Shown: positions 7,006-29,819 of the stretch, one piece after another
Position numbering within the stretch: position 1 is the first letter of the stretch
How the letters are laid out: each line of letters begins with the position of its first letter
From: Actinomycetota bacterium
Lineage (GTDB): Bacteria; Actinomycetota; CADDZG01; JAHWKV01; JAOPZY01
DNA: 54,666 nt
Assembly: GCA_036495025.1 (NCBI GenBank)
Contig: DASXNO010000196.1
Span: 1 to 54,666, forward strand
Reading direction: 5' to 3'
Notes under the pieces: generated by a model
What the model saw: only the letters and a program-made list of their open reading frames with translations
Told to the model about the DNA's origin: nothing
The model's database searches: none
Made by a program: the position numbers and the translations under genes

Positions 7006-7290
7006 GTGCCGAGGTCACTGAGCAAGGGTCCGTTTGTCGACGACCATCTGTTGAAGAAGGTCGACGAGTTGAACCGCCGCGGCGACAAGCGGGTCGTCAA
7101 GACCTGGTCGCGCCGGTCGACGCTGATCCCGGACATGGTGGGCCACACGCTGGCGGTGCACGACGGCCGCAAGCACGTGCCGGTGTACGTCACCGAATCG
7201 ATGGTCGGCCACAAGCTCGGCGAGTTCGCCCCGACCCGGACCTTCCGAACGCACGGGCACCACACCGAACGAAGCTCGAGGCTGAAGTAA
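7006..7290 (+). CDS. rpsS: 30S ribosomal protein S19
   Basis: Contains [15 protein letters not shown]...[17 protein letters not shown]. Confidence 0.97.
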
Positions 7291-7882: not shown

Positions 7883-8854
7883 GTGGGTCACAAAGTTCAC
7901 CCGTACGGGTTCCGGCTGGGCATCGTCACCGACTGGAAGTCCCGCTGGTACGCCGAGGGCAACCAGTACCGCCAGTACGTGCTGTCGGACGACCGTATCC
8001 GGGAATACCTGAAGAACCTCCTCCCGCACGCCGCCATCAGCCGGATCGAGATCGAGCGGACCCGCGAGCGCGTCCGGGTCGACGTCCACACGGCCCGGCC
8101 GGGCATCGTCATCGGCCGCCGGGGGGTGCAGGCAGACGAGATCCGCGGCACCCTCGAGCAGATGGAGACCAAGGCAGCCCGCGCCGTGACCGGCAAGGAC
8201 GTGAACGTCCAGGTGCAGCTCAACATCATCGAGGTGAAGGCCCCCGACCTGGACTCACAGCTCCTGGCCCAGGCCGTGGCCGAGCAGCTGTCGTCCCGGG
8301 TGTCGTTCCGCAGGGCGATGCGCAAGGCGGTCAACACCGCGATCAAGGCGGGGGCCCAGGGCGTCAAGATCTCCTGCGCCGGCCGCCTCGGCGGGGCCGA
8401 GATGAGCCGCCGTGAGGGCTACCACGAGGGCAAGGTCCCGCTGCACACGCTCCGGGCGGACATCGACTACGGCTTCACCGAGGCCCGGACCACCTTCGGG
8501 CGCATCGGCGTCAAGGTCTGGATCTACAAGGGCGACGTGGTCCCCGTCCGGGAGGCAACCGCCCGGCGCCGGGCCGCGGAACAGGACGCGGCGGTCTCCG
8601 GCCAGGCCCCCGCGCCGGCCCCGGCCGGCACCGACCGCCCGGCACGCTCCGGCGGGCGCGGCGGACAGGGTGGCCCCCGCTCCGGGGGCGGCGGCGGCCA
8701 GGGGCGGCCCCCGCGGCGCGAGCCCCGCCCGGCACCGGCCGCCCAGGCGACCCCGGCTCCCGTCCCCTCGACTGCACCACCGGCTCCTGCCGAGCCCGCA
8801 GCGGCACCGCCGCCGCCGACCCGGCAGGCGCAGGAGGGGCCCGCCGATGCTTAG
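7883..8854 (+). CDS. rpsC: 30S ribosomal protein S3, with a ~100-aa G/R/P/A-rich C-terminal tail
   Basis: GTG at 7883 gives (M)[23 protein letters not shown]. The part of track ORF 7709..8854 upstream of this is a shadow of the rplV tail. Confidence 0.94.
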
Positions 8855-9266
8855 CCCGAAGAAGGTCAAGCACCGCAAGCAGCACCGCGGCCGCATGCGG
8901 GGGCTGTCCAAGGGCGGCACCAAGGTCAACTTCGGTGACTTCGGCCTCCAGGCAATCGAGCCCGGCTGGATCACGAGCCGCCAGATCGAGTCGGCACGTG
9001 TCGCCATCACCCGCCACGTCAAGCGAGGCGGCAAGGTGTGGATCAACATCTTCCCGGACAAGCCCTACACGAAGAAGCCCGCCGAGACCCGGATGGGGTC
9101 CGGCAAGGGCAACCCCGAGGGCTGGGTGGCCGTGGTGAAACCTGGCCGGGTCATGTTCGAGCTCGCCGGCGTCCCCGAGCCCATCGCCACCGAGGCCATG
9201 CGTCTCGCCGGGCACAAGCTGCCCATTCACACCCGGTTCGTCCGGCGGGAGGGTGGAGAGGTTTGA
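8847..9266 (+). CDS. rplP: 50S ribosomal protein L16
   Basis: Contains [17 protein letters not shown]...[18 protein letters not shown] at 8847 overlaps the rpsC 3' end. Confidence 0.96.
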
Positions 9267-9655
9267 AGACCGCGGAGATTCGTGAGCTACCCTCTGAGGA
9301 GTTGCAGACGCGCCTCGACGAGGTGAAGGAGGAGTTGTTCAACCTCCGCTTCCAGCACGCCACCGGCCAGCTCGAGAACTACGGCCGGCTCGGTCAGCTC
9401 CGGAGGGACGTCGCGCGGCTTCGCTCGATCCAGCGTGAGCGGGAGCTCGGTATCGGCAACGAGCCGGAACCCGAAGAGGTCGAGCGCTCCCGCCGCCGGC
9501 GCGAGCGGGAGAAGGAAGAAAGCGACGCCGATGCTCCGAGGCGCCGGCGGGGTCTGCGGCGTGGGCGCGGCGAGGAAGCGGAAGCCGGCGAGACCGGCGA
9601 GGCCGGGGCAATGGAGACGTCTGAAGAGGCCGGAGAGGTGGAGGAAGACCAGTGA
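9263..9655 (+). CDS. rpmC: 50S ribosomal protein L29, with a ~60-aa highly charged E/R-rich C-terminal tail
   Basis: TTG at 9263 overlaps the rplP stop. Contains [38 protein letters not shown]. Confidence 0.9.
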
Positions 9656-9957
9656 GCGATGCCGGGGGGCCCTCGGACGAGGTTCGGGGGCAGGAAAAGG
9701 TTGAGGAGCGACCGCAGCGCAAGGTGCGCCTGGGCGTCGTGACCTCCGACCGCATGGACAAGACCGTGGTGGTGCAGATCACCCAGACGATCCGCCACCC
9801 CCTCTACCCAAAGATCTACCGGCGGCGGAAGAACCTCTACGCCCATGACGAGACCAACGCCGTCAAGGTCGGCGACACGGTGCGGGTCATGGAGACGCGG
9901 CCGATGTCGAAGCTGAAGCGCTGGAGGGTTGTCGAAGTGCTTGAGAGGGCGAAGTGA
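9652..9957 (+). CDS. rpsQ: 30S ribosomal protein S17
   Basis: Contains [21 protein letters not shown]...YAHDE. The start overlaps the rpmC stop (GTGA). Confidence 0.95.
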
Positions 9958-10322
9958 TCCAGCAGGAGTCCCGGTGCAGGGTGGCGGACAACACGGGTGC
10001 CCGCGAGGTGCTCGTCATCAAGGTGCTGGGCGGCTCCCAGCGCCGGTACGCCGGCGTGGGCGACGTCATCGTCGCCGCGGTCAAGGACGCCCTGCCCAAC
10101 CAGCAGGTCAAGAAGGGTGACGTGGTGAAGGCGGTCGTCGTGCGGACCGCCAAGGAGAAGCGCCGCCCCGACGGCAGCTACATCCGCTTCGACGACAACG
10201 CCGTCGTCATCATCAACGACCAGAACAACCCCCGCGGCACCCGCGTCTTCGGGCCGGTGGCCCGGGAGCTCAGGGAGAAGCGCTTCATGAAGATCATCTC
10301 GCTCGCCCCGGAGGTCCTCTAG
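9954..10322 (+). CDS. rplN: 50S ribosomal protein L14
   Basis: Contains [28 protein letters not shown]. Confidence 0.97.
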
Positions 10323-10648
10323 TGGCTGCCCGCATCCGCAAGGGAGACCGGGTCCACGTCCTGTCCGGCAAGGACGCCGGCAGGGAGGGCCGGGTGATCG
10401 CCGTTCTCCCGGCCCGCAACCGGGTGCTCGTCGAGGGCGTCAACCGGGTGAAGCGCCACGAGAAGGTGCGGCCCTCCGCCCGCGGTGGCGGCCAGGAGGG
10501 CGGGATCGTCACCAAGGAGCTCCCCGTGGACCTGTCCAACGTCACGCTGGTCTGCGGGTCCTGCGGCCCGACCCGCGTCGGGTTCTCCGTTGCCGAAGAC
10601 GGCACGAAGATCCGCGTCTGCCGTTCATGCGAAGGGGAGCTGGCCTGA
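10322..10648 (+). CDS. rplX: 50S ribosomal protein L24, with a C-terminal CxxC...CxxC motif
   Basis: Contains [24 protein letters not shown] (KOW domain). The C-terminus reads [30 protein letters not shown]. Confidence 0.95.
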
Positions 10649-16298: not shown

Positions 16299-17065
16299 TC
16301 CAGAAGAAGAGTCCCGAGCAGATCGAAAAGATGCTCGTCGCCGGCCAGGCGCTTGCGGATGTGATCAACGAGCTCAAGGCCGCGGTCGCGCCGGGGGTCA
16401 CCACCCTCGACCTCGATGCCCTGGCGGAGCGCCTGATCCGGGAGAAGGGGGCCGTTCCCTCGTTCCTCGGCTACCGGGGCTTCCCCGGCAGCATCTGCAC
16501 CTCGCCGAACAAGGTGATCGTGCACGGAATCCCCAACGCCACGCCCCTGGCCGCCGGCGACCTGCTTTCGGTCGATGTCGGCCTCATCCTGGACGGCTGG
16601 CATGCCGACAGCGCCCACACCTACCCGGTCGGGCAGATCACGCCCAAGGCCCAACGCCTGCTCGACGTCACCCAGGCCTCGCTCGAGGCGGGGATCGAGA
16701 TGTGCCAGCCGGGCAACCGCCTGACCGACATCTCCCACGCGGTCCAGCGGGTGGTCGAGCACGAGGGGTTCTCGGTGGTCCGGGAGTTCGTCGGTCATGG
16801 CATCGGCCGGAACCTGCACGAGGACCCGCAGATCCCGAACTTCGGACCGGCCGGTCGCGGCCCCCTCATCGAGGCCGGCATGGTCTTTGCCATCGAGCCG
16901 ATGGTCAACGCCGGCGGCTGGCGGACCAGGACCCTGGACGACGGATGGACCGTCGTCACTGCCGACGGCAAGCTGTCGGCCCATTTCGAGCACACGGTGG
17001 CCGTGACGCCTGCCGGGCCCCTCGTCCTGACGAGGTTGCCCGCCCCCTCGTCGGTCGGCGCCTAG
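16295..17065 (+). CDS. map: type I methionine aminopeptidase
   Basis: Contains VIVHGIP..PLAAGDLLSVDVG, FVGHGIG and FAIEPM. The start overlaps the adk stop (ATGA). Confidence 0.96.
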   Translation: MIQKKSPEQIEKMLVAGQALADVINELKAAVAPGVTTLDLDALAERLIREKGAVPSFLGYRGFPGSICTSPNKVIVHGIPNATPLAAGDLLSVDVGLILDGWHADSAHTYPVGQITPKAQRLLDVTQASLEAGIEMCQPGNRLTDISHAVQRVVEHEGFSVVREFVGHGIGRNLHEDPQIPNFGPAGRGPLIEAGMVFAIEPMVNAGGWRTRTLDDGWTVVTADGKLSAHFEHTVAVTPAGPLVLTRLPAPSSVGA

Positions 17066-17189
17066 CCTGCTCGTCCTCAGGTGGGGGCCGGGCTGTGGAC
17101 CGGGCTGGGGAAAACCTCCCGCTCTAGGGTATTCTCACCTCCCCTGCGTTTTCCCATGCACAGGGGCCCGCGGAGGGGGCGGGTAGGGC

Positions 17190-18650
17190 ATGGAACCGTT
17201 GGACGAGCTCGACCCGTTGGCCACGGTCTTCCCGGAGGAGGACGCTCCGCTGCAGGGGCTCCCGCCGCTCGGAGGGTCCGGGCAGACGCGCGCGGCCCGG
17301 CACGAGTCGCCTGTCCCCGCCACCAGGGTGCCCTTCCCGCTGGACCCCATTCTCGCACCCGTGTTCAGAGATTTCGAGCAGTCCGGGGTGCGCTGGTGCC
17401 TCCTCGGCCTGCCGGAGGAGCGGCCGCAGGGCGCTGACGAGGAGGTCGTCGTCCTCGTCGACCGCTCGGCGCTCGCCACCGCCCGCCGGGCTCTGAAAGC
17501 GAACGGCTTCGCCCCGATCCCCACCTGGGGCCGCGGCCCCCTGTCCCGCTTCGTCGGCTACAACCCCAGCGGCGACCGCTGGGTGATCCTCGACGTCGCC
17601 ACCCGCTTGACCTACGGCCCCAACGCCGAGTTGGAGACCGGCGCCGAGGGCGGCTGCCTCGAGCGGCGTCGCTGGGAGGGTGGGGTATACGTGCTCGCCG
17701 CCGACGACGCCTTCTGGACCCTGCTCCTCCACGTGCTGCTCGACGACCCCACGCTGCTTGGCGCACGACCCCCGGCGTTCGCCAAGACGCTGGAGCGCCT
17801 GGCGGTCGAGGCAAGGACGGAGGGCCCGCTCGGCCGGGTCGTTGCCTCGTTCCTGCCGGAGCGCTGGAGCACGGAGATCCTCGTCGACTGCGTGTGGGAC
17901 GGGGACTGGGATGCGCTGGAGCGTCTCGCCCCGGTGCTCGCCGGGGCCTGGGCGCACGAGCAGGAGGGTCCAGCCCGACGCCGCGACCTCGCCAACCGCG
18001 CGCTGCGTCGCTTCTCGGCGCGGCGGCTACTGCCGCCGCCCAGGGGTCTGTCGGTAGCGCTGCTCGGCCCCGAGCCCGCCGCCAAGGCCGCCCTGGCCGA
18101 AGAACTGGGCAGGACCTTCTACCTGCCGGTGACCTTCATGCGGATGAACCCTCCGCCGCGCACCCGCGGCGGCAAGCTGACCCGGGCCTGGTTGTTCGTC
18201 ACCCTGGTCACCTTCTGGCACCGCTACCTGATCGGCCGCCAGCGACGAAGCAAGGGCCGGCTCGTCATCTTCGACCGCTACACCTACGACTACCGCCTGC
18301 AGCCTGCGAAGCCCGCCCGGGCGCTCGGCAAGCTGCGCCGCCTGATCCTGGGTCGGGCCTGCCCCGCCCCCGACGTCGTCGTCGTGCTCGACGATCCGGC
18401 GCCGCCAAAGGTGCGCAAGCTCCGCCCCGACGTGCCCTACGAGAGCGTCCGCCAGCGCTACCTCGACCTCGCCCAGCGCCTCCCCGACGCCATCGTCGTC
18501 GAGGCGCCCGGCTCCCACGAGTCCTCCAGCGAGGACTCGATGGACGCCGAGCAGCTCCGGCGCGAGATCACCGCCCAGCTGTGGCGGGCCTACGCCGCCG
18601 CCCCACCCACGTCGTGGCTGCTGCGCCTCGGAGGTCTGCTCCAGCGCTGA
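17190..18650 (+). CDS. nucleotidyltransferase-like / thymidylate-kinase-like fusion protein; both catalytic motifs are degenerate (a paralogue of the next gene)
   Basis: The 486-aa protein aligns by eye along its whole length with ORF 18677..20023. It has GADEEVVVLVD where the paralogue has SGDIDMMVD. It has GPEPAAKAAL where the paralogue has the Walker A GPDGAGKSTL. It keeps LVIFDRYTYD. Confidence 0.75.
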   Translation: MEPLDELDPLATVFPEEDAPLQGLPPLGGSGQTRAARHESPVPATRVPFPLDPILAPVFRDFEQSGVRWCLLGLPEERPQGADEEVVVLVDRSALATARRALKANGFAPIPTWGRGPLSRFVGYNPSGDRWVILDVATRLTYGPNAELETGAEGGCLERRRWEGGVYVLAADDAFWTLLLHVLLDDPTLLGARPPAFAKTLERLAVEARTEGPLGRVVASFLPERWSTEILVDCVWDGDWDALERLAPVLAGAWAHEQEGPARRRDLANRALRRFSARRLLPPPRGLSVALLGPEPAAKAALAEELGRTFYLPVTFMRMNPPPRTRGGKLTRAWLFVTLVTFWHRYLIGRQRRSKGRLVIFDRYTYDYRLQPAKPARALGKLRRLILGRACPAPDVVVVLDDPAPPKVRKLRPDVPYESVRQRYLDLAQRLPDAIVVEAPGSHESSSEDSMDAEQLRREITAQLWRAYAAAPPTSWLLRLGGLLQR

Positions 18651-18676
18651 CGCGTCCCCATCAAACGTAGTGTGCT

Positions 18677-20023
18677 GTGGTCCACCAGGAAATGGGAGCC
18701 GACCCGTTGAATGCCGACCCGTCGGTGCCGGTCGAGACCCGGCCCGTCCACCCGTTGCTCGCCGAGGTGTTCGCGGCGCTCGACGCCGCGGAGATCGGGT
18801 GGTGCCTCCTGCGCGGCGAGGCAGGCCTCGCCTCCCCGAGCGGCGACATCGACATGATGGTCGATCCGTCGCAGGTCCGGGCAATGGAGGAGGCGCTGGC
18901 CCCACTCGGCGTCGTCCCGGTCGAGCGGTGGGGGGGCGGCCTCCACCGGTACTTCCTCGGCTACCACGCTCCGACCGATCAGTGGATCGACCTCGACGTC
19001 GAGCCCGAGTTTGTCTACGGACCCCAGGCCAGCTTCCTCGTGAACTGGATGCTACCGGCCCTGCGGACCCGCGTGGCCGCCGGGTGCCTGGCGCGGCGCC
19101 GGCAGGAGGGCGGCATCTGGGTCCTCGACCGCGACGACGCATTCTGGGCGCTGCTGGCGCATTGCGTCGTCGACAAGGGATCGGTGGCCGAGCGCCACCG
19201 CGAACGCCTCTCCGAACTGGCGGCGTCGGCGTCGGCGTCGGGCGAGTTCGGCACCGTCGTGGGCAGGAACTCCCCGCCCGGCTGGGACGCAGCCCGGATC
19301 ATCGAGGCGGCGGCGGCCGGGAGCTGGGACGAGCTCGTTGCGGTCGGTGCCCAGCTCCCGCGGCGGGCGACCGCAGCGCGGCCGGTATCCACAAGGGCGG
19401 AAGCCCTGCTCCGCGGCCTCGGGCGGCTGCCGGCCACCGCCTGGCGGATGCGCCACGCCGGCTTCAGCGTCGCGATCCTCGGGCCGGACGGCGCCGGCAA
19501 GTCCACGCTCTCCTCGGGGATCGTCGCCAACTTCGGCCTGCCGGCCAGCCTTGTCTACATGGGTCTGTGGCAGGGCGAGGAGGGCCAGCGACGCTCCCTT
19601 GTCCGGGCCGGGCTCGCCGCCGCCAACCGGCCCCTCAAGGTCTGGCGCCGCTACCTCGTCAGCCGCTACCACCGGGCCAGGGGGCAGCTCGTGATCTTTG
19701 ATCGTCACGTCTACGACGCCCTGCTCCCGCCCGAGCCCCCGCTCGTGTGGGCGAAGCGCCTGTTCTTCGGCTTCCTCGCGCACGCCGCCCCCGGCCCGCA
19801 CCTCGTCCTGGTGCTCGACCTGCCGAGCGAGGTGACCATGCAACGGCGTCCGGAGGAACGGCCGGAGCATCTGGAGGCGCTGCGGGCCCAGTACCGTGCG
19901 CTCGCCGAGCGCCTGGGGCGGGCGCAGCTGATGCCGGCCGCCGGGACGCCCGACGAGATGCGCATCGACGCCACCGACCGTATCTGGCGGGCGTACGTCG
20001 CCCGGCGCTCGAGCACTAGGTAG
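18677..20023 (+). CDS. nucleotidyltransferase (NTP_transf_5-like, GDIDMMV motif) fused to a thymidylate-kinase-like P-loop domain
   Basis: 448 aa. The N-terminal half has WCLLRGEAGLASPSGDIDMMVD...WIDLDVE (Pol-beta-type NTase signature). The C-terminal half has AILGPDGAGKSTL (19481-19507) and VIFDRHVYD (Tmk-like DRY/H motif). The start is GTG 18677; ATG 18692 is an alternative. Confidence 0.75.
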   Translation: MVHQEMGADPLNADPSVPVETRPVHPLLAEVFAALDAAEIGWCLLRGEAGLASPSGDIDMMVDPSQVRAMEEALAPLGVVPVERWGGGLHRYFLGYHAPTDQWIDLDVEPEFVYGPQASFLVNWMLPALRTRVAAGCLARRRQEGGIWVLDRDDAFWALLAHCVVDKGSVAERHRERLSELAASASASGEFGTVVGRNSPPGWDAARIIEAAAAGSWDELVAVGAQLPRRATAARPVSTRAEALLRGLGRLPATAWRMRHAGFSVAILGPDGAGKSTLSSGIVANFGLPASLVYMGLWQGEEGQRRSLVRAGLAAANRPLKVWRRYLVSRYHRARGQLVIFDRHVYDALLPPEPPLVWAKRLFFGFLAHAAPGPHLVLVLDLPSEVTMQRRPEERPEHLEALRAQYRALAERLGRAQLMPAAGTPDEMRIDATDRIWRAYVARRSSTR

Positions 20024-20028
20024 GCACC

Positions 20029-21027
20029 GTGCGCCGGGCGAGCGCCGGCGTCTCCCTCGTCCAGGCCCGCCTCCGCCGGACGCGGGACGGCCGCCGGCGG
20101 ATGGGGGAGGCCGTCGATCTGCTGCCGTCGATCCTGCGGGAGGTCGTGGCCCAGTCGGGCGTGGCCGAGGCCGCGGGCTGGGCGCTGCACGCCTCCCACC
20201 TCTCCGGCACCCACGTGGCCGTGCTGATGGTCGGCCCGGCGGGCCAGCCCCCGGCTGCAGTCGTCAAGATGCCGTCGACGTCCGAAGGGGTCGCAAGCCA
20301 GCGCAGGGAGGCCGAGGCCCTGGCCGCCCTGAGGTCGGAGCCGTCGCTGGGCGACCTCGCGGCGCTGATCCCGGGCCGGCTGGCCGAGGGCGAGGTCGCC
20401 GGCATCGCCTACACCGTCGAACGGGCGGTTCCGGGCGTCGAGGGCCGGGTCCTGCTGGGCGATCCGGCGATGAGGGAACGGGTCGTGGCGGCCGCGGCGG
20501 GCATCATCGGACGGATCCACCGGGCCACGTCGGCCTCGGTGGTGGTGGACGACGAGCTGCTGGAGCGCTGGGTCAGCAGCAGAGTCCGCCTCCTCGTCCC
20601 CGCCACCCGCAACGCGCCGGCCCTGGAGCGCCTCGACCAGCTCCTCCGCCGGGCCTGGGAGGGCCGGAGCGTCGAGGTGGCGTGGGTCCACGGGGACTAC
20701 TGGCCGGCCAATGTCATCTTCGACTCCGCGCTGGCGGTCACGGGCATCATCGACTGGGAATGGGCAGCTCCCCGGGAGCTGCCGGCCCACGACCTCCTCT
20801 ACCTGGCGATCCACCTGCGGATGCTGGCGGAGGGAAGGGAGCTCGGCCCCGTCGTCCAATCGTTGCTCGAGGGCGGCAGGGGCCAGCCGGTGGGTGGTGC
20901 CGACCGGGAGACGCTGCTGCTCGTCTGGCTCCGCCACGTGGCCTACAACCTGACCCAGTCGCCGGGCGACGCCCGCAACTGGATCTGGACGAGCCGCAAC
21001 GTCGATTCGGTCCTGCGTCTGCTCTAA
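20029..21027 (+). CDS. APH/choline-kinase-fold phosphotransferase
   Basis: Contains VHGDYWPANVIF...GIIDWEWA, the HGDxxxxN plus DxE signature of aminoglycoside/choline-kinase-type kinases. The GTG start is 5 nt after the upstream stop; ATG 20101 is an alternative. Confidence 0.8.
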   Translation: MRRASAGVSLVQARLRRTRDGRRRMGEAVDLLPSILREVVAQSGVAEAAGWALHASHLSGTHVAVLMVGPAGQPPAAVVKMPSTSEGVASQRREAEALAALRSEPSLGDLAALIPGRLAEGEVAGIAYTVERAVPGVEGRVLLGDPAMRERVVAAAAGIIGRIHRATSASVVVDDELLERWVSSRVRLLVPATRNAPALERLDQLLRRAWEGRSVEVAWVHGDYWPANVIFDSALAVTGIIDWEWAAPRELPAHDLLYLAIHLRMLAEGRELGPVVQSLLEGGRGQPVGGADRETLLLVWLRHVAYNLTQSPGDARNWIWTSRNVDSVLRLL

Positions 21028-21103
21028 AACACCGTTGCGCAGCGAACTGAGGTAAGAATCACGCGTATACGCGCTATTTTTGCCTCGCTTCCGCCCGAGG
21101 GGC

Positions 21104-23152
21104 TTACGACAGAGCCGGCCCCGGGCTGATGGGCTTGGGGTTCCCGTTGTTGGGTGTGGCGGGGCCCGCCTCGGGCGGGATCATCTCCAGCACGCTGGCG
21201 TCCTGGTTGGTGAACAGCAGCTTCGCAAGTCCGTTGTTGACGAGCTTCTGGCCCAGGGCGTACTCCCACCCTGCCGGGAGTGAGTCGAGGGCCTCCCCCG
21301 CCGCCTCCTGGCTGCGCGTGATGATCAGGTACACGGGGTGGTCCCCGAGGCCCTGGTCGGCGGCCAGGCTGATCAGGCCCTTCTCGTCGGGCGGGTCGGT
21401 GGTGTTCTGGACCGACTCGTAGTCGAAGGCGTTGATGTCCTGGTAGCGCCACGGGAGCTGCGGGAACAGCGAGATCAGGGTCGTCCTCCCGTGACCGGGT
21501 GCCGCGGGCTGGGCGTTGGCGTACAGGTACCGCACCGCGGCGAGGTCGGCGGACGAGACTCGGTCGAAGCGCTCGTTGCCGTACCGGGCGACGAGCCAGG
21601 CAGGGCCGAATGCCGCCGCCACCAGGCAGAAGCACAACGCCGGCAGCGCGACCTTCTTCGGCTCGGTCGCCGGCATGAACGCCATGGCCGCCAGGAGGGC
21701 CACGAACGGCAGGGCGAACAGGTACGCCCGCAGGAGGGCCTCGCCGCCGTAGCTCTGGACGGCGAGCACCGGGAAGGGGGCAAACCCGAGGAGGAGCAGG
21801 CTCCAGTCGCCGTAGCCGAGCCTCCGCCGCCGGATGGTGCCGACGAGGGCGATCGCCGCGACGGTGCCCGCCAGGGCGATGCGGATCGCCAGCACATCCA
21901 GGCGGCCGGGGGAGCCCTGGATGCGTCCGGTCAGGCTGGTGCTGACGTTGGCGCCGAGGTGGCCGACGTCGCCGACGATCAGGTTGAGGTGGCCGGACCA
22001 GAATGCGATCGCCCCCAGGCTGATCCAGGACACCATTGTCACGGCGAGGATGACCGGGAAGCCCCGCAGCGTCGTCCGCCCGAAGAACAGGAGGGCGATC
22101 AGGCCGCCGAGGAGCAGGAACGGCGTCAGTTGGTGGCTGACGGTCATCGCCAGGAAGATGGCGGCGAGGATGGCGATCAGGGCACCCCGCTGGGTGGGGG
22201 TCGAGCTTGCCTCGATCAGCTCCTCGCCCCGGCCCCCGATCCTGTGCATCCAGGTGGCGAGGAACCGCTCCCAGCGGTTCCCCTGGTCAGGTTCGGGCAT
22301 CGCAGGCCGGAACCATCGGAGGGCGACGGCGAGGAAGACCAGGAAGAGGAAGAAGTTGAACGCCTGGGGCGAGAAGTAGTCCTGCCCGACCCAGCTCGCA
22401 AGGTAGAAGAAGGCGAGCCCCATCCACCATGCCCGTTCGTTCCGGGTGACCGCCCGGAAGATGGCGTACAGCGGGGGGAGGTACATGAGGTTGAAGGCCA
22501 GCGGCGCCCACCGCAGGAAAGCCACGGGGCTGTGGAGGCCGGCGGCCTTGGACAGAAAGGCGGCGAGTGCGAAGAACCCGGGCCAGCTGAAACGGGCGTC
22601 GAGCGTGGGGAGGGTGGCACCGTGCTGGGCGATGTACTGCGCGAAGCCGGCGTGCAGCCACGAGGTCGCGAAGGAAGCGTGGGGCTCGACCAGCGGTCCG
22701 AGCCCGTCGAGCAACGCGATCAGGCCGATCAGCTGGAACGCCAGCAGCGGCCGGCGAAGCGGCCGCTGGCAGAGAGCAAAACCGAAGCTGACGATGACGA
22801 GGCCGATGGCGACGAAGTACACCGGGCCGACGACCGTCACCAGACCGAGGTCCCCGAGGGCGGAGGAGTCCACCCTGAGCAGCGCCAGGACTCCCATGAC
22901 CAGCGCCGCGAAGGTCATCAGGGCCATCTGGCCCGTGCTCAAGCCGCCGCCGCGCCGCCCGGGATCCCTCGGGGCCGCCAGGTTCAGGCTCGGCCCGGGG
23001 GGTCCGGGCTGCGTGCGGAGCGCCTGTTCCTCCTCTTCGGCTCCGCCTCTGGTCATGCTTCGCTCTCCTGTGGGGCTCCGCGGCACGCTGCGCTCTCCTG
23101 TGGGGCTCCGCGGGAAGCCCAGCTCTCCCAGAAAGCGACGCGGCCTGGCCAT
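21104..23152 (-). CDS. large polytopic membrane protein (~14 TM) with a ~160-aa C-terminal soluble domain; GT-C-like glycosyltransferase or glycan polymerase candidate
   Basis: This is the C-terminal two-thirds of track ORF 21104..24100. Hydrophobic segments run from MALMTFAALVMGVLALL to ALCFCLVAAAFGPAWLVA. Start ATG 23152 lies 5 nt after the flippase stop; ATG 23056 is an alternative. The family is not resolved by eye. Confidence 0.7.
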   Translation of the reverse strand: MARPRRFLGELGFPRSPTGERSVPRSPTGERSMTRGGAEEEEQALRTQPGPPGPSLNLAAPRDPGRRGGGLSTGQMALMTFAALVMGVLALLRVDSSALGDLGLVTVVGPVYFVAIGLVIVSFGFALCQRPLRRPLLAFQLIGLIALLDGLGPLVEPHASFATSWLHAGFAQYIAQHGATLPTLDARFSWPGFFALAAFLSKAAGLHSPVAFLRWAPLAFNLMYLPPLYAIFRAVTRNERAWWMGLAFFYLASWVGQDYFSPQAFNFFLFLVFLAVALRWFRPAMPEPDQGNRWERFLATWMHRIGGRGEELIEASSTPTQRGALIAILAAIFLAMTVSHQLTPFLLLGGLIALLFFGRTTLRGFPVILAVTMVSWISLGAIAFWSGHLNLIVGDVGHLGANVSTSLTGRIQGSPGRLDVLAIRIALAGTVAAIALVGTIRRRRLGYGDWSLLLLGFAPFPVLAVQSYGGEALLRAYLFALPFVALLAAMAFMPATEPKKVALPALCFCLVAAAFGPAWLVARYGNERFDRVSSADLAAVRYLYANAQPAAPGHGRTTLISLFPQLPWRYQDINAFDYESVQNTTDPPDEKGLISLAADQGLGDHPVYLIITRSQEAAGEALDSLPAGWEYALGQKLVNNGLAKLLFTNQDASVLEMIPPEAGPATPNNGNPKPISPGPALS
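23061..23113. repeat. tandem 30-bp duplication (exact 23-bp core, two copies) inside the 5' end of the membrane-protein gene
   Basis: cgctctcctgtggggctccgcgg occurs at 23061-23083 and again at 23091-23113. On the minus strand it encodes PRSPTGERS twice, in frame. Confidence 0.9.
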
Positions 23153-23157
23153 GGCGC

Positions 23158-24615
23158 TCACGCAGCCCCGGCTGCGACCGGCTCCTTGCGCCCCAGGATC
23201 TTGAAGATCGAGGGTAACAGGCACAACGCAACGAAGACCTGGCTGGCGAGGTAGCCGAGGCCCACCCCGTCGATGCCGAACCGCCCCATGAGCCACCACG
23301 ACAGGCCGGTGATCGACACCAGCAGGACCGCCTGCCAGAAGGCGATCTGGCCCACGCGGCGCTCCACCCTGGACAGCGCGATGTACAGGGACGTCACCGC
23401 CTTCGCCAGCACGGCGACCGCCAGCAGGCGCAGCAGGCCGGAGCCATGGACGGCATACGGGTGGCCGAAGACGCCGAGGACGCGCGGGGCGAACAGGAGC
23501 AGGATCGCCACGGCCGGCCCGATGATCGCGAGGACACGGCGTACGACCGTGCCTGCGTGGTGGCGGAGCAGCGACCGGTCCATCGCCCCTTCCACCATCA
23601 GCGCGACGCCGAGGTTCACGGTGACGAGGTCGAGGGCGTAGATGATGAGGTAGGCGCTCGCGAAGTAGCCCGCCTCTGCCTTGCCGAGCCGGGCGAGGAT
23701 CAGCACGGGCAGCAGCGTCCCGGTGGCCATGAAGAGCACGGTCCCGAGGTAGTCGCCACCCATGAAGCGCCGGATCGAGCGGACGCCCAGGGCGCCGCCT
23801 GCTCCGGCCGGGAACCCTGCTTCCGCCTCGACCCCCTCGACCGGCCCAGCGCCGCCGGGTGCCGTCTGGCGTGCCATATGGCGGGGGAGCAGCCGCCGGA
23901 AGATGAAGTAGTTGGTGGGGAACAGGGCGATGAACGCCGGCAGCGTGAAGGAGGTGAAGATCCCGTAGTGCTGGGTGACGTGGGCCAGGCCCACGAGCAT
24001 CCCGATCTTGACGACGCCGTAGAGCCCGTTCTCCACCGGGATCCACACCGCCTGCCGGATCCCGGTCAGCACCGCGTCCTGCAGGGCGAAGACGCACCAC
24101 ACCGTGACGGAGCCGCCGAGGGCCACCGCCAGGAGCCAGCCGTGGCCGAGGACTGCCGGGATGCGGTTGAAGAATGCCGTGTGGATGTGGATGAGGGCGA
24201 TGTAGAGGAGGCTGACGAGGGCGCCGGCGGTGCCGGCAAGGACGTACGAGAACAAGGCGAGCCGCTTGGACTGGTCGCCCGCGCGGGGGATGAACCTGGC
24301 AAGCGCAGCCGCGAAGGTCAGCTGGCCTCCGATCCCTGCGAGCAGCTGCATGAGGCTGATGGCAGCGTTGCCGACGCCGACCTCGGCGGGCGAGTAGAGC
24401 CGGGCGGCAAGGATCCAGTAGAGCAGGCCGAGCACGGACGTCGCCCCGACGTTGATGATCAGTGCGTAGCCGTTGCGCAACAGGGGGTCGCGCCAGTCGT
24501 CCCGCAGGCGCCGCATGGGCGCGAGCGCCAGGCTTGCCGGGGCGCGGCGGACCGGCATCCTCACGGCAGCCGGCGTCTCAACGGATGCAGGAGGGGCAGC
24601 CCAGCGGTTGACCAT
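23158..24615 (-). CDS. MOP-superfamily polysaccharide flippase (Wzx-like)
   Basis: About 485 aa and multi-TM. Contains NGYALIINVGATSVLGLLYWILAARLYSPAEVG and LMQLLAGIGG, typical of lipopolysaccharide/polysaccharide biosynthesis protein families. ATG 24615 is preceded by aggtggg and lies 14 nt after the upstream GT2 stop. Confidence 0.8.
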   Translation of the reverse strand: MVNRWAAPPASVETPAAVRMPVRRAPASLALAPMRRLRDDWRDPLLRNGYALIINVGATSVLGLLYWILAARLYSPAEVGVGNAAISLMQLLAGIGGQLTFAAALARFIPRAGDQSKRLALFSYVLAGTAGALVSLLYIALIHIHTAFFNRIPAVLGHGWLLAVALGGSVTVWCVFALQDAVLTGIRQAVWIPVENGLYGVVKIGMLVGLAHVTQHYGIFTSFTLPAFIALFPTNYFIFRRLLPRHMARQTAPGGAGPVEGVEAEAGFPAGAGGALGVRSIRRFMGGDYLGTVLFMATGTLLPVLILARLGKAEAGYFASAYLIIYALDLVTVNLGVALMVEGAMDRSLLRHHAGTVVRRVLAIIGPAVAILLLFAPRVLGVFGHPYAVHGSGLLRLLAVAVLAKAVTSLYIALSRVERRVGQIAFWQAVLLVSITGLSWWLMGRFGIDGVGLGYLASQVFVALCLLPSIFKILGRKEPVAAGAA

Positions 24616-24628
24616 TCGCCCACCTACG

Positions 24629-25963
24629 CTAACTGGCCCTCGTGGCCGTGCGCCCGGCCGTGCGCGCCCAGCGCCGGCTGCGGAGGTAGGCCACGGGGCC
24701 GACGAGCGCTCCACCCATCTCGACGAGGGTGAGCTGCCGCGGGAAGGTCGAGGTCTTCTTCTCGTTCTTCGGCGAGGAAGGGTTGAGGAAGTACGCCACG
24801 CCCCTGGGAGCCCGGCGGAGCACGTCGGCCCGGGTTTTCGGATTCAGGAGCGCCTTGGTCAGCACGGCCGCGAGGCCCACGCCGTAGCCCCGGACGGCAC
24901 GCCGGAGGTCGGCGTACTCCCGGCGGTGATGGTGCCGGACGAGCGAGCGCGGCTCGTAGACGAGGCGGTAGCCGGCCAGGATGATCTGCAGGAAGGCGTC
25001 GATGTCCTCGCCGCCGCAGGCAGGGGTCGCGGGGCCAAGGGCGGTGTCGAAGCCACCGATCTCCCGGAGCACCACCGGGTCGAAGGCGGCGCTGGCGCCC
25101 GAGCCGAACTTGCCGACGGAATAGGGGTAGAGCGGGTCCGCCGGCGCGTGCTCACCCAGGTCGAAGATCCTCTGCTCGTAGCCCTTGTCGAACCCACCGA
25201 ACTCTTCGATCCACACCTGCGACTGCGTATCGAGCTCGGCGGGCAGGATCATCCCGGTCACGCACGCCACGCCGGGCGCTGCCTGGAAGCCCAGCACGAG
25301 GCTGCGGAGCCACAGCCGGTCGACGAGGACGTCGTCGTCGACGAAGGCGACGACCTCGCCCGATGCCGCTCGCAGCCCGCAGTTCCGGCCCGCCGAGGCC
25401 CCCGGTGTGGGCTCCAGGAGGTAGCGGACCCTGAGGTCGTCGGCGAAGCGCTCGGCGACCATCTCCCGCGTCGCCGCCGTCCGTGGGGCATTGTCCACGA
25501 CGAGGACCTCGAAGGCTGGGTAGTCCGCCCGGAGGATCGACTCGATGCAGGCGCCGACCGGGCCGGGCCGTTCATGGGTGGAGATCACGACCGAGGCGAA
25601 CGGGAAGTGGCTCTCGTCGTGGCGCTGGCAGGCGGGCTTGTGCTGCGGGTCTCCGGGAGGGCCCTCGGGCGTGAGACCCGTCTCGGTCAGGCGGACCGGG
25701 GGCTCGAGGCCGTCCGCGGCGAGGTGGTCGACGATGGGTTGCCGGAGACGCTCCCACACCTGCCGGGCGACGTCGCCGGCCGCGATCGTGCCTGCCCGCA
25801 GGTCGAGCTGCAGGGTCCCGAGGGGACGGCCGTGCAGCCGCACCAGCACGAGCGCGGAGCTGTAGGTGCGTTCGCCTGCGTCTTCACCCGGGCGGGCGGC
25901 AGGGCCGATGCCCGCCAGCGGCTGGGAGATCTCGAGGTCAAGGACCCGAACGGGAGTCAACAT
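24629..25963 (-). CDS. family 2 glycosyltransferase with a ~115-aa N-terminal extension
   Basis: Contains SVVISTHERP...ILRADYPAFEVLVVDNAP...AGRNCGL..A.GEVVAFVDDDV and GGEDIDAFLQ. The start is ATG 25963; GTG 25978 is an alternative. Confidence 0.85.
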   Translation of the reverse strand: MLTPVRVLDLEISQPLAGIGPAARPGEDAGERTYSSALVLVRLHGRPLGTLQLDLRAGTIAAGDVARQVWERLRQPIVDHLAADGLEPPVRLTETGLTPEGPPGDPQHKPACQRHDESHFPFASVVISTHERPGPVGACIESILRADYPAFEVLVVDNAPRTAATREMVAERFADDLRVRYLLEPTPGASAGRNCGLRAASGEVVAFVDDDVLVDRLWLRSLVLGFQAAPGVACVTGMILPAELDTQSQVWIEEFGGFDKGYEQRIFDLGEHAPADPLYPYSVGKFGSGASAAFDPVVLREIGGFDTALGPATPACGGEDIDAFLQIILAGYRLVYEPRSLVRHHHRREYADLRRAVRGYGVGLAAVLTKALLNPKTRADVLRRAPRGVAYFLNPSSPKNEKKTSTFPRQLTLVEMGGALVGPVAYLRSRRWARTAGRTATRAS

Positions 25964-26395
25964 GGAAGCACAGAGCACCTTTCAAACGGTTGCGTCGGCC
26001 ACGTGCCACGTCCACTCGTCCGGTCTTCGAGTGGCTCCCCAAGTGGAAACAGCAGCTCCAAGAGTGTTCTCGGGCAGGGCAAACAGCTCCGCCAGGAGTG
26101 TTGCAAACGATTAGACCTCCCCCATCCTCCGGTGTCAATCAGGACCAATGAGGCACCCCTGAAGCTGAGCCGGCGACGCGAGGGGGGCCTACGAGATGAT
26201 GTCGGCACCGGAATGCCCGGTCTGAAGCTGGAAGTGTCTTCTGGGAGTCTTAAACTTTCCCTGCAGGGTTGCCGAAATATGGAGTTGAACCACGGCGTAG
26301 TCCCCTTTGTCCCCTTTCGGGACGAGGCGTGACGTCGGACAGCCTGCCGCAAAGCCGGGGACATGTGCGGGGGACTCGAGGGGAGGGACTCGACA

Positions 26396-27358
26396 ATGGC
26401 GTCAGGGCGCGTACGGTTCTCGGTGGTCATCTGTGCCTACACCGAGAAGCGGTGGGACGACCTGGTGGCCGCCGTCGAGTCGCTTCGGGTCCAGACCCAT
26501 CCCCCCGAGGAGGTCATTCTGGTCATCGACCACAACCCCGGGCTGGCCGAGCGCGTCTGGCGGGAAATCCCGGATGTGACCTGCGTCGAGAACCACGGCA
26601 CCCAGGGCCTCTCCGACGCCCGAAACTCGGGCCTGGCGGTCGCCCGTGGCGACGTCGTGGCGTTCCTCGACGACGACGCCGAGGCAGAGCCCCGGTGGCT
26701 GTCGGTGCTCGCCGAGTCCTATGCCGACCCGGCGGTGGTTGCGGTCGGCGGGTTCGCCGAGCCCGACTGGGCAGAGGGCCGGCCGAGCTGGTTCCCCCGC
26801 GAATTCGACTGGGTCGTCGGCTGCACCTACCGGGGCATGCCGGAGGTTGCCTCGCCGGTGCGGAACCTCATCGGCTGCAACATGTCGTTCCGCCGGGAGA
26901 TCTTCGCCGACCTCGGCGGGTTCACGGCGGGCATCGGGCGTCTCGGTACCCGCCCGGTGGGGTGCGAAGAGACCGAGCTGTGTATCCGTATCGGCCAGCG
27001 CCGCCCGGGCTCCGTCATCCTCTTCGACCCGAGGGCCCTCGTCCACCACCACGTCCCCGGCTCCCGTGGGACCTGGGCGTACTTCCGTTCCCGCTGCTAC
27101 GCCGAGGGACTCTCCAAGGCCGCGGTCGCCGCGCTGGTCGGTGCCGGCGAGGGCCTTGCCAGCGAGCGTGCCTACACCACCCGGACGCTGCCGAGGGGCG
27201 TGGTCAACGGCATCGCCGCCGGCGTGAAAGGCGAGGCCGGAGGGTTCGGCCGGGCCGCTGCCATCGTCGCCGGGGTCAGCCTCGCCACCGTGGGCTATGG
27301 CCTCGGACGCCTCTCGCCCCGCCGCTTCGCGCAGGCCGGGATGGTCCCTGCGGCGTGA
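26396..27358 (+). CDS. family 2 glycosyltransferase
   Basis: Contains FSVVICAYTEKRWDDL...VILVIDHNP...ARNSGLAVARGDVVAFLDDDA and CEETELCIR. ATG 26396 is preceded by gaggggaggga. Confidence 0.85.
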   Translation: MASGRVRFSVVICAYTEKRWDDLVAAVESLRVQTHPPEEVILVIDHNPGLAERVWREIPDVTCVENHGTQGLSDARNSGLAVARGDVVAFLDDDAEAEPRWLSVLAESYADPAVVAVGGFAEPDWAEGRPSWFPREFDWVVGCTYRGMPEVASPVRNLIGCNMSFRREIFADLGGFTAGIGRLGTRPVGCEETELCIRIGQRRPGSVILFDPRALVHHHVPGSRGTWAYFRSRCYAEGLSKAAVAALVGAGEGLASERAYTTRTLPRGVVNGIAAGVKGEAGGFGRAAAIVAGVSLATVGYGLGRLSPRRFAQAGMVPAA

Positions 27359-28170
27359 GAGCCCTCCCCGTTCTCCTCTATCATTCGATCAGCGACGTTG
27401 GATCCGCCGAGGTGGCGCGCTTCGCAATCTCCCCGAAGGTGTTCGACGAGCACATGCGGCATCTCGCGGAGGAGGGCTACTCGTCCATGACCGTGACGGA
27501 ATTCCTGCCGGCGCTCCTCGCACCGGACGGCCCCGGCCACGTCCTGCCCGAGCGCCCCGTCCTCGTCACCTTCGATGACGGCTTCCGTGACTTCCTGACC
27601 AACGCCCTTCCGGTCCTGCAGCGCCACGGTATCGCCTCCACCCTCTATGCGACGACGGGGTTCATGGGCGAGGGCGAAGCGCCGGGCACCAACCGCTCCG
27701 GCGACGAGATGCTGTCGTGGAGCGAGCTCGCCGAGGTGGTGCGCCAGGGCGTCGAGGTCGGGGCGCACACGCACGGCCACGTCATGCTCGACACGGTGCC
27801 GCACGCCACCGCCAGGGACGAGATCACGCGGTGCAAGGCGCTGATCGAGCAGCATACCGAGACCCCGGTCGCCAGCTTCGCCTACCCCCACGGCTATTCG
27901 AGTGCCTGGGTCCGCCGGGTGGTGGCCGAAGCCGGGTACACGTCGGCCTGCGCCGTGAAGAACGCCATGAGCCACCCCGGGGACGACCCCTTTGCCATCG
28001 CCCGCCTCATGCTCGAGGCCTCGCATACCCGGGGTGACTTCCTCAGGATGCTCTCGGGCGACGGCGTCCCGGTTGCCAGCTCGGGCGATCGGTGGCAGAC
28101 GCGGGGCTGGCGCTTGGTGCGGCGAGGACTCGCCGCCGGACGTCGCCTCCGGGCGGGGAGGATTCCGTGA
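27355..28170 (+). CDS. polysaccharide deacetylase (CE4/NodB domain)
   Basis: The GTG start overlaps the GT2 stop (GTGA). Contains VLVTFDDGFRDF and VGAHTHGH, the NodB motifs. The upstream part of track ORF 26269..28170 is a shadow. Confidence 0.85.
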   Translation: MRALPVLLYHSISDVGSAEVARFAISPKVFDEHMRHLAEEGYSSMTVTEFLPALLAPDGPGHVLPERPVLVTFDDGFRDFLTNALPVLQRHGIASTLYATTGFMGEGEAPGTNRSGDEMLSWSELAEVVRQGVEVGAHTHGHVMLDTVPHATARDEITRCKALIEQHTETPVASFAYPHGYSSAWVRRVVAEAGYTSACAVKNAMSHPGDDPFAIARLMLEASHTRGDFLRMLSGDGVPVASSGDRWQTRGWRLVRRGLAAGRRLRAGRIP

Positions 28171-28628
28171 AGCCGTTCGGCGAGGACGCCGGCCAGACAA
28201 CGCCGTCTCCGTCCCCGGCGGCCACCCCGGCCTCCCCCGGGCCCCTCGGTGGCTACTGGAGGATCGCCGTCATTGGCGTGCTGCTCGTGCCCACGTTCGC
28301 CCTCAGCGCGGTGCCGGATGTCCACAGCCTGGACGCGGTCCGGGCGACGGTGACGCTGGCCTTCATGGCGGTGGGCCCCGGCATGGCCCTCATGGGCCTG
28401 CTGGCCCTCGACGACCTCCTGCTGGAGCTCAGCCTGGCGCTGGCCCTCAGCCTCGTGCTCGAGACGATCATCGCCATGGCGATGCTCCTGCTCAAACGCT
28501 GGGTCCCAACGGCGGGTCTGGTGGTGCTGGAGATCCTGACGGTGATCGGGGTGCTCGCGCAGGCGAATCAGGTCACCAAGTCGAAGCAGAGCAACCGGTA
28601 CCGCCCCGCAGCCCCCATCCCGCCGTAA
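28167..28628 (+). CDS. small membrane protein (about 4 TM), function unknown
   Basis: GTG 28167 overlaps the deacetylase stop and has GGAGG 5 nt upstream. Hydrophobic segments include YWRIAVIGVLLVPTFAL and LAFMAVGPGMALMGLLAL. Confidence 0.6.
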   Translation: MKPFGEDAGQTTPSPSPAATPASPGPLGGYWRIAVIGVLLVPTFALSAVPDVHSLDAVRATVTLAFMAVGPGMALMGLLALDDLLLELSLALALSLVLETIIAMAMLLLKRWVPTAGLVVLEILTVIGVLAQANQVTKSKQSNRYRPAAPIPP

Positions 28629-28650
28629 CGCCGACCCAAAAGGCTTCCAC

Positions 28651-28896
28651 ATGGTCTCGTCGCTCACGAAGGACACGTACAGCTTTCTGGCCTCCCATCA
28701 CTTCGCAAGCACTTCGGGGTGGATCGGTGGGCTGATGCTCGGCCTCCTGCTCCTCCTGCTCGTCGAGAAGGAGGTCACGCGGGCAGTGGTTCGCTCCCTG
28801 CCCCCGACGACAGGTCGCATCTTCGACATCGCCGCCATGCCCCTGCTGCTCACGTTTGCGGTCGTGGTCATCGAGCGGTTCCGGGCCCTGGGCTGA
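28651..28896 (+). CDS. small membrane protein (2 TM), function unknown
   Basis: 81 aa with WIGGLMLGLLLLLLV and IAAMPLLLTFAVVVI, in an operon-like position. Confidence 0.5.
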   Translation: MVSSLTKDTYSFLASHHFASTSGWIGGLMLGLLLLLLVEKEVTRAVVRSLPPTTGRIFDIAAMPLLLTFAVVVIERFRALG

Positions 28897-28903
28897 GGGG
28901 CCG

Positions 28904-29779: not shown

Positions 29780-29819
29780 GAAACGGGCGGGACGCCAGCA
29801 GGACGCCTGGCGGGGCCCC

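Follow-up and report, generated by a model that had tools for sequence, protein, structure and literature searches.

Introduction

Kinases of the thymidylate kinase (Tmk) or deoxynucleoside kinase fold phosphorylate either a phosphate monoester or a hydroxyl group, and nucleotidyltransferases (NTases) of the ANT/LnuA type transfer a nucleoside monophosphate (NMP) to the hydroxyl of a sugar. The folds themselves are known, but their fusion in one protein, and the link of such fusions to polysaccharide gene clusters, was not found described in the searchable literature. This work concerns two adjacent genes of that kind, here called A and B, on contig DASXNO010000196.1 of the Actinomycetota assembly GCA_036495025.1. 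The window, meaning the whole stretch of DNA analyzed, is 54,666 nucleotides (nt) long with a G+C content of about 70%, and all coordinates are given on its forward strand. A first-pass annotation, made from the sequence of the window, had not recognized the domain combination as a characterized system; the literature search likewise found none described, its only yield being a brief reference in an inventory of phosphonates and a phage paper on an unrelated subject. The reading favored here, with a probability of roughly 55%, is that B is a competent two-domain enzyme of a glycan pathway, working with an APH-type kinase through phosphorylate-then-cap chemistry, and that A is a non-catalytic partner of B.

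The C-terminal half of B resembles thymidylate kinase (PF02223, TIGR00041), with which it shares the Tmk fold, the Walker A and DR[YH] motifs and the lid arginines, the best structures in the PDB being the Aquifex, Thermus and S. aureus enzymes. Unlike these, B is fused to an NTase domain and lies in polysaccharide clusters together with an APH-type kinase, and its identity to the 50 structural matches listed is 15–25%. The N-terminal half finds its best structural matches in ANT(2'')-Ia, LnuA and JHP933/TM1012, which also have a G-D-x-D metal site followed by a helical subdomain. B differs from them in occurring without an antibiotic-resistance context and in having a longer helical domain with a motif of its own, DDAFWxLLLHCxxDK.

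A precedent for consecutive kinase and NTase-fold steps comes from the lasso peptide pseudomycoidin. There, PsmN, a member of an "uncharacterised NTase family" modeled on the ANT(2'') entries 5cfs and 4xje, acts after the kinase PsmK and is needed to place one or more hexoses on the installed phosphate; its DxD mutant (D134A/D136A) is inactive (PMC6993621). Like B and its APH kinase, PsmK and PsmN pair a kinase with an NTP_transf_5-type NTase, the second step taking place on the phosphate, whereas the substrate is a peptide, the partner is of the HPr-kinase type and the two activities reside in separate proteins.

Kinases and NTases are also found together in LicA/LicC, AmgK/MurU, HldE and CysNC, in which an APH-type or P-loop kinase and an NTase occur within or beside glycan clusters, as they do here; one locus of the B family (L086) has an adenosine-5'-phosphosulfate (APS) kinase gene nearby. 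The NTases of those systems, however, have GlmU/IspD or ATP-sulfurylase folds, not the Pol-beta fold of B, and Pfam and NCBIfam scans detected no sequence relationship between them and A or B. Finally, the A/B pair recalls known pairs of a pseudoenzyme and an active enzyme, given the homologous fold of A, the loss of catalytic residues at both sites, purifying selection and possible co-transcription with the active paralogue. It departs from them in that inactivation extends to both halves of a bifunctional enzyme and in that A is not the sister of its neighbor B.

Two Adjacent Paralogues with Contrasting Active Sites

Gene A (17190–18650, forward strand) encodes a protein of 486 amino acids in which the NTP_transf_5-like NTase half and the Tmk-like half are both degenerate, and gene B (18677–20023, forward strand) encodes 448 amino acids forming a motif-intact fusion of an NTase and a Tmk-like kinase. 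The first-pass annotation had reported two open reading frames (ORFs) of exactly these sizes and had aligned them by eye across both halves. Pairwise BLASTP agrees: of 444 aligned residues that take in both halves, 33% are identical and 47% score as positives (E = 2e-53), and every peptide match that had been listed was recovered in the translations; A and B are paralogues. The true start of B may be the ATG at 18692, which yields 443 amino acids, the length of the 98%-identical cluster P0002.

The pair lies directly 3' of rplO-secY-adk-map and is followed by a gene for an APH-like kinase on the same strand, with gaps of 26 nt between A and B and 5 nt between B and the APH gene. A promoter and terminator scan of 16900–21300 found neither a promoter nor a terminator-like site anywhere in that range, the gaps between the three genes included, and their co-transcription is weakly suggested.

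A family alignment of 82 sequences (A1) formed the basis of the structural model of B, of the family profile and of the conservation figures. The AlphaFold2 model of full-length B reached a pLDDT of 93.1 and a pTM of 0.90. Since Foldseek searches with the full-length model were dominated by Tmk matches, the N-terminal half (residues 1–260) was modeled apart, with a pLDDT of 92.4. The C-terminal half gave 166 matches in the PDB at E ≤ 1e-3, the best being 2pbr (E 2.7e-7); the 50 matches listed are nearly all thymidylate kinases, with 15–25% identity and top target-normalized TM-scores of 0.63–0.69. For the N-terminal half, the top matches were ANT(2'')-Ia, JHP933, LnuA and TM1012, followed by weaker ones to Cid1, CutA, TUTase and CCA-adding enzymes. 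Against PDB sequences, the A1 profile retrieved Tmk at E 4e-11, while the single sequence of B returned P-loop noise only. The modeled C-terminal half of B is thus of the thymidylate kinase fold, and the modeled N-terminal half is of the Pol-beta NTase fold, nearest to enzymes that nucleotidylate small-molecule hydroxyls.

On its own, B scores 19.8 bits (E 7e-4) with Thymidylate_kin PF02223, whose Pfam gathering threshold is 27 bits, and 16.5 bits (E 6.6e-3) with NTP_transf_5 PF14907, whose threshold is 31.2 bits. At E ≤ 1e-3, however, PF02223 was detected in 60 of the 82 family members and PF14907 in 36 of them (best E 1.9e-8). The two families had been put forward as hypotheses in the first-pass annotation, and the Foldseek matches, the profile search and this family-wide scan all support them.

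The motifs of B are those expected of both folds. The metal-binding G-D-x-D strand of the NTase, SGDIDMMVD (18839–18865, forward strand; G56-D57-I58-D59), has its D59 conserved in 98% of the 82 members; the canonical Walker A, GPDGAGKST (19481–19507, forward strand), has G272, G274 and K275 invariant in the same set; and QLVIFDRHVYD (19685–19717, forward strand), the DR[YH] motif known from Tmk and deoxynucleoside kinases, has D342 and R343 invariant. More than 100 B-like clusters share with B the motifs G-[DE]-x-D-[LM]-L-V, DDAFWxLLLHCxxDK, GPDGAGKST, FDR[YH]xYDA and LVLVLDxP, together with two invariant arginines in the lid region. B looks like a catalytically intact enzyme, an activity that we infer from these motifs rather than from biochemistry.

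The public name "thymidylate kinase" should not be taken for the function of B, which scores 19.3 bits against the dTMP-kinase equivalog TIGR00041, far below the curated cut-off of 83.25 bits. Judged by this score, the two-domain architecture and the glycan context, B is unlikely to be a housekeeping dTMP kinase, and deoxythymidine monophosphate (dTMP) is an unlikely acceptor.

Protein A: Lost Catalytic Residues and Purifying Selection

Protein A alone has no match in Pfam or NCBIfam, and its folds are deduced from homology. Its orthologues form a clade of 27 clusters (P0121–P0148, 46–93% identity), all with degenerate motifs. When 51 positions conserved at 88% or more in the B-like set were compared with this clade, 39 proved to be retained and 12 altered, namely (in B numbering, used below unless stated) R46, D59, D271, G272, G274, S276, T277, Y294, G296, R390, E393 and L399. 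The changes fall at both active sites and around them. At the NTase site, R46 is altered and D59 is replaced by Val, Thr or Ala in 27/27 sequences; the P-loop carries D271E, G272P, G274A, S276A and T277A; in the loop after strand 2, G296 is altered and Y294 has become an arginine invariant in the A clade; and the lid shows R390K along with changes at E393 and L399. Positions K275, D342-R343, D347, D381, R403, H162, D166 and W437 are retained.

In A of the window, the strand corresponding to the NTase G-D-x-D motif reads EEVVVLVD (17439–17462, forward strand; E85-V86-V87), with Val for the second Asp, and the degenerate Walker A reads GPEPAAKAA (18066–18092, forward strand), in which both Gly, the Ser and the Thr are gone and the Lys is kept. 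This lysine (K275 of B, K299 of A) is invariant in all 27 sequences of the clade, whose first NTase carboxylate is Glu in most members. The DR[YH] motif persists as RLVIFDRYTYD (18258–18290, forward strand), D362 and R363 being invariant in the clade, and A also keeps the helical-domain motif DDAFWxLLLH..D and one lid Arg.

These data sharpen the account given in the first-pass annotation, which proposed an active enzyme beside a pseudoenzyme. The sequence comparison bears out that proposal, with changes at the NTase site, P-loop, strand-2 loop and lid and the rest of the core preserved. Its claims that A had lost the second NTase Asp, G272, G274 and S276 hold, to which T277 is to be added; its claim that the Walker Lys was lost was mistaken. 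Among its nucleotide ranges, that of GPDGAGKST was exact and three were off by 3–9 nt: SGDIDMMVD had been placed at 18842–18868, EEVVVLVD at 17430–17462 and GPEPAAKAA at 18066–18095.

It is quite improbable that A is still an enzyme, acting through non-canonical residues as some "pseudokinases" have proved to do and with an activity unlike that of B. Such a role would draw on the invariant Walker Lys, DR[YH] motif and D401, on the Glu at the first NTase carboxylate of most members, and on P-loops that are nearly canonical in some, such as GPDGAAKAA in P0138, or that keep Ser after the Lys, as in P0135. The losses speak against it: the second NTase carboxylate is missing throughout the clade (27/27), Gly272 is replaced (by Pro in 16/27), at the canonical Mg-ligand position, which follows the Lys, Ser has given way to Ala or Gly in 22/27, and lid R390 is altered in most members. 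The first-pass annotation had named catalytic residues kept in a shifted register as the observation that would overturn its reading; the candidate motif of this type in A, D83-x-E85, is not conserved across the clade and was rejected.

The ratio of nonsynonymous to synonymous substitution rates (dN/dS), computed against the orthologous contig L005, was 0.134 for A, 0.206 for B, 0.209 for the APH gene and 0.118 for SecY, and about 100 columns of the A-clade alignment are invariant. A is under purifying selection. By sequence criteria, that is, family homology, loss of catalytic residues at both sites and long retention, A is a pseudoenzyme, and the dN/dS of 0.13 together with the clade-wide conservation sets it apart from a decaying gene. 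It is accordingly highly improbable that A is a non-functional duplicate in decay, or that the pair is a toxin–antitoxin or defense module of the MNT-NTase type. The absence of any Pfam or NCBIfam match for A would suit either idea, and minimal NTases are known in toxin–antitoxin systems, but A has an intact 486-residue frame, 27 orthologue clusters and the selective constraint just described. The anti-phage and toxin–antitoxin readings were rejected because the PADLOC defense-system models gave trivial P-loop matches only (E 0.015–0.11), there is no HEPN-like neighbor, and the context is consistently one of polysaccharide genes.

Origin and Distribution of A

Although A and B are neighbors, A is closer to active copies of other lineages, with 43–44% identity to the Actinomycetota members P0044 and P0150 against 33% to B. 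In a neighbor-joining tree with midpoint rooting and without support values, which is to be taken as indicative, the A clade is monophyletic (27/27), has a long stem and lies beside P0150, apart from the clade of B orthologues. A recent tandem duplication was therefore rejected as the origin of the pair, and the term "tandem paralogues" in the first-pass annotation misleads insofar as it implies local duplication, A not being the sister of B.

Among the GTDB species representatives, A-clade genes occur in three genomes only (loci L005, L087 and L088), and A is confined to one Actinomycetota lineage. A stands immediately upstream of B in the same orientation in the window and in L005, L087, L081 and L082. 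The order map-A-B-APH is kept in L005 up to the contig end, and in L081 and L082, whose A copies are only 50% identical, the same order continues through the membrane protein, flippase and two glycosyltransferase family 2 (GT2) genes found in the window. Most genomes with the family have a single active copy, and to the survey question raised in the first-pass annotation, whether active and dead copies always occur together, the answer is no; the constant partner is an APH-type kinase.

Two insertions were observed in these loci. In L005, the contig most closely related to the window, an ORF with TnpB/IS605-OrfB-like features, including a zinc ribbon (CPxC...CPxCG), lies at 8403–10145 between the B orthologue and the APH gene, splitting this tight pair. 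In L087, from the metagenome-assembled genome (MAG) SMAG_U11629, a gene at 5821–7233 for an apparently secreted protein of 470 amino acids with a signal-peptide-like N-terminus stands between the A and B orthologues.

The B Family: Size, Neighborhood and Fusions

A profile search of 1.84 billion representatives at 50% identity retrieved 13,849 proteins at E ≤ 1e-3; with the cut-off tightened to E ≤ 1e-10, 6,634 remained, and at E ≤ 1e-30 the number was 1,742. At least 306 species-representative genomes encode a relative of B, mostly in Actinomycetota and Chloroflexota, with further relatives in Gemmatimonadota, Acidobacteriota, KSB1, Calditrichota, Planctomycetota and Bacteroidota MAGs. Family members are automatically named "thymidylate kinase" in public annotation, and this name is an over-annotation.

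A tblastn survey with the proteins of the window, in which co-occurrence was counted over the first 80 loci, revealed a recurrent module of six genes, encoding a B-like protein, an APH-like kinase, two GT2 enzymes, a flippase and a polytopic membrane protein. The module was seen in Micromonosporaceae, Chloroflexia, Solirubrobacterales, Acidimicrobiia and Blastococcus. An unbiased survey was based on all ORFs within 7 kb at 127 non-redundant loci, clustered and annotated through Pfam searches of the cluster representatives. The APH-like kinase was the most frequent neighbor (83/127 loci), followed by FemAB/Acetyltransf_6-like proteins and Polysacc_synt flippases (38 loci each), glycosyltransferase family 4 (GT4; 37 loci), Wzy_C (23 loci) and Bac_transf (21 loci). 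Pfam-annotated examples of such polysaccharide clusters are L085 from Micromonospora and L086 from Ardenticatenaceae, the latter with Bac_transf, MptA_B, the B-like gene, GT4, GT2, Wzy_C, Polysacc_synt, a methyltransferase-APH gene, APS kinase and a phosphodiesterase-family gene. The B family thus sits in polysaccharide clusters across phyla, and the APH-type kinase is its most constant partner. Linkage to glycosyltransferases, flippase, polymerase/ligase and initiating transferase recurs across the family loci and is complemented by gene fusions.

These fusions join B-like proteins to APH (P0263, P0310), to a Wzx-type flippase (P0234, P0235), to glycosyltransferase family 9 (P0235, P0237) and to GT4 (P0319), and P0042 contains a polysaccharide deacetylase domain. 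Five representatives of about 1,240 amino acids (P0263, P0264, P0313, P0341 and P0364) have an N-terminal region of some 450 residues ahead of the B-like module; in P0263, the one of the five that was scanned, this region has no Pfam match and the APH domain lies downstream.

The modules of the family also degenerate and separate in other ways. Some relatives, judged by their motifs, combine an intact NTase DxD with a dead kinase half (P0214, P0217, P0223, P0225 and P0226), and the genes of P0223 and P0225 adjoin an APH gene as well as a Tmk-like gene that stands alone. Such repeated combining of live and dead modules would be expected if the domains act as oligomers in which one non-catalytic protomer is tolerated. 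In Blastococcus xanthinilyticus (L072), the kinase half and the NTase half are apparently separate genes (10001–10537 and 16484–17218), about 6 kb apart on opposite strands of the same cluster of APH, flippase and GT2 genes. It was also observed that in L163 (3473–5523) and L164 (1876–2940 and 5676–6401) a member with an intact NTase and a dead or absent kinase site lies beside a stand-alone Tmk-like gene (253 or 241 amino acids) and an APH gene, which makes a second and independent kind of degenerate module in the family.

The Glycan Island of the Window

A and B open a glycan-gene island of about 17–18 kb (17066–35788) that breaks up the conserved ribosomal-protein supercluster, with map on one side of it and rpsD-rpoA-truA on the other. 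Besides A and B, it comprises genes for the APH-like kinase, a membrane protein, a flippase, three GT2 enzymes, a CPBP protease, a YNCE-like beta-propeller and a DMFA2_C-domain protein, and its beginning, from map to the second GT2 gene, is the part shared with L081 and L082.

The APH-family phosphotransferase (20029–21027, forward strand; 332 amino acids; PF01636, E 8e-18) retains in its translation the catalytic motifs HGDYWPAN (HGDxxxxN) and IIDWE (DWE). It is followed on the reverse strand by the polytopic membrane protein of the conserved module (21104–23056; about 650 amino acids), which shows 10 or more hydrophobic segments with a soluble domain at its C-terminus, lacks any Pfam or NCBIfam family match, and has orthologues in 17 of the 80 loci. 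Searches of PDB sequences with this protein and with the APH-like protein returned no matches. The candidate Wzx-like polysaccharide flippase (23158–24714, reverse strand) has no Pfam or NCBIfam match of its own, and its orthologue in L083 is called Polysacc_synt.

The glycosyltransferase GT2a (24629–25978, reverse strand; PF00535, E 6e-24) co-occurs in 23 of the 80 loci and GT2b (26363–27358, forward strand; PF00535, E 3e-27) in 15. GT2b resembles AglG, the haloarchaeal glucosyl-dolichyl-phosphate glucuronosyltransferase, matching NF041394 with E 8.5e-69 and 232 bits, below the cut-off of 440 bits; this likeness hints at a pathway that extends a lipid-phosphate-linked sugar. A third GT2 gene lies at 32837–33925, and no match to Bac_transf or Wzy_C was found in the window. 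Two further proteins encoded inside the island are a YNCE-like beta-propeller (29820–31058, reverse strand; E 3e-32) and a protein of 520 amino acids (31181–32743, forward strand) with an N,N-dimethylformamidase beta-subunit C-terminal domain (PF20254, E 2e-112).

Proposed Mechanism and Alternatives

Three modules of the locus look intact from their motifs, namely the APH-type kinase, the Tmk-fold kinase and the ANT/LnuA-like NTase. In the favored reading, B and the APH-like kinase would act at the cytoplasmic face of the membrane, in a Wzx-type pathway for polysaccharides built from lipid-linked repeat units. One or both kinases would phosphorylate a sugar of the lipid-linked unit or of its precursor, and the NTase-fold domain would then attach either an NMP or a sugar, with that phosphate or a hydroxyl as the acceptor group, to give a phosphodiester-linked decoration or a donor activated by a nucleoside diphosphate (NDP). 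This lipid-linked version of phosphorylate-then-cap chemistry is suggested by the chemistry of the modules, the PsmN precedent and the fusions to flippase and glycosyltransferases. A would serve B as a subunit without catalysis of its own or as an adaptor that binds the substrate, and the two proteins would form a heteromer via their Tmk-like domains, their NTase domains or both, domains that are normally dimeric; such a role as partner or adaptor is probably the most economical one that its sequence allows.

A somewhat unlikely alternative to lipid-linked capping concerns the chemistry and not the relationship of A and B. Here, the product would be a soluble donor: the APH-like kinase would convert X-OH to X-P, the NTase X-P to NDP-X, and the Tmk-like domain would phosphorylate a nucleotide or phospho-intermediate, in the manner of LicA/LicC, AmgK/MurU or the synthesis of 3'-phosphoadenosine-5'-phosphosulfate. 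Among the APH-family kinases are anomeric-sugar and choline kinases whose products go on to nucleotidyltransferases, and the APS-kinase and phosphodiesterase-family genes of L086 would suit such a route. So would a phosphonate cluster family, GCF 540, reported to have genes for a "thymidylate kinase" and for an NTase of PF14907 on either side of the phosphoenolpyruvate mutase gene (Ppm; 10.1101/2021.04.07.438883). These two may correspond to the enzyme pair seen here, employed in a different pathway. The fusions of B-like proteins to a Wzx-type flippase and to glycosyltransferases, however, fit action on a lipid-linked unit at least as well, and the known NDP-sugar and CDP-alcohol synthases have a different NTase fold. 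On balance, the data fit soluble-donor chemistry and lipid-linked capping about equally.

Several observations weigh against the favored reading, in which B is a competent enzyme and A its partner. As regards B, its Pfam scores lie below the gathering thresholds for both domains, and the structural matches of the NTase half are weak (TM-scores of 0.38–0.57 at 11–14% identity). As regards the precedent, the likeness of PsmN to B rests on the shared ANT(2'') templates and not on a comparison of sequences or Pfam families, and the activity of PsmN has not been reconstituted in vitro (PMC11912497). As regards A, the retention of Lys299, the DR[YH] motif and Glu85 makes residual or altered catalysis conceivable. 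In the MAG CTOTU39051, moreover, an A-like gene with a degenerate P-loop (L088, 3–1259) is followed directly by membrane-protein, flippase and GT2 genes, while the pair of B-like and APH genes lies on a different contig (L002, 10001–11257), so that adjacency of A and B is not obligatory. Genes of the B-orthologue clade also occur without A in other lineages (L001, L003, L012 and L083); A is therefore dispensable for the basic reaction and is a lineage-specific accessory, not a general feature of the family.

The arrangement in L088, with neither B nor APH beside the A-like gene, would suit the idea that A has become a binding or regulatory protein in its own right, for example one that senses or chaperones a nucleotide, phosphosugar or lipid-linked glycan and exerts control over the flippase or the membrane protein, and is not a subunit of B. 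That A is not the sister lineage of B points the same way, as do the many invariant residues specific to the A clade, such as R318 in place of the family Tyr, and the retained residues of a ligand-contacting type (K299, D362-R363, R421, H181 and D185, in A numbering). Such independence is nevertheless distinctly unlikely, given that A lies directly upstream of B in the same orientation in the window and the four loci named above. Tmk-fold enzymes and NTases of the LnuA/KNTase type are typically dimers, so heteromerization would be the simplest use of a dead paralogue.

The reading in which A is a partner of B can be carried further, to a proposal that is still unlikely at present. The B family and the APH kinase, with A in this lineage, may constitute an unrecognized tailoring pathway for the surface polysaccharides of monoderm bacteria (Terrabacteria), in which two kinases and a Pol-beta-fold transferase would build a phosphodiester-linked or nucleotidylated decoration on the lipid-linked unit before it is flipped. 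A would then be an allosteric or scaffolding pseudo-subunit that couples this chemistry to the flippase or the membrane machinery. If true, the pathway would be a glycan counterpart of PsmK/PsmN chemistry.

Conclusions

What is new here is the size of the family, its polysaccharide context, the partnership with an APH-type kinase, the fusions and the doubly dead paralogue; the folds were already known. The pseudoenzyme pair is solid but restricted to one lineage, and the large misannotated family with its APH partner is the more valuable lead.

The pair A/B offers a clean natural case in which the paralogue of a bifunctional enzyme has lost both active sites and has been kept by selection, and it should be of use in research on the origin and the roles of pseudoenzymes. 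At the level of the family, at least 1,700 clusters at 50% identity from Actinomycetota, Chloroflexota, Gemmatimonadota and other phyla are filed as "thymidylate kinase" although they are two-domain enzymes of polysaccharide clusters, and renaming them would curb misannotation. Carriers of the module include the cultivable genera Micromonospora, Dactylosporangium, Catellatospora and Geodermatophilus, which makes the system experimentally accessible. The B family may also help to explain the PsmN-type NTase chemistry of lasso-peptide tailoring. More broadly, the family points to an unstudied step in the biosynthesis of envelope glycans, in which phosphorylation would be followed by nucleotidyl or glycosyl capping.

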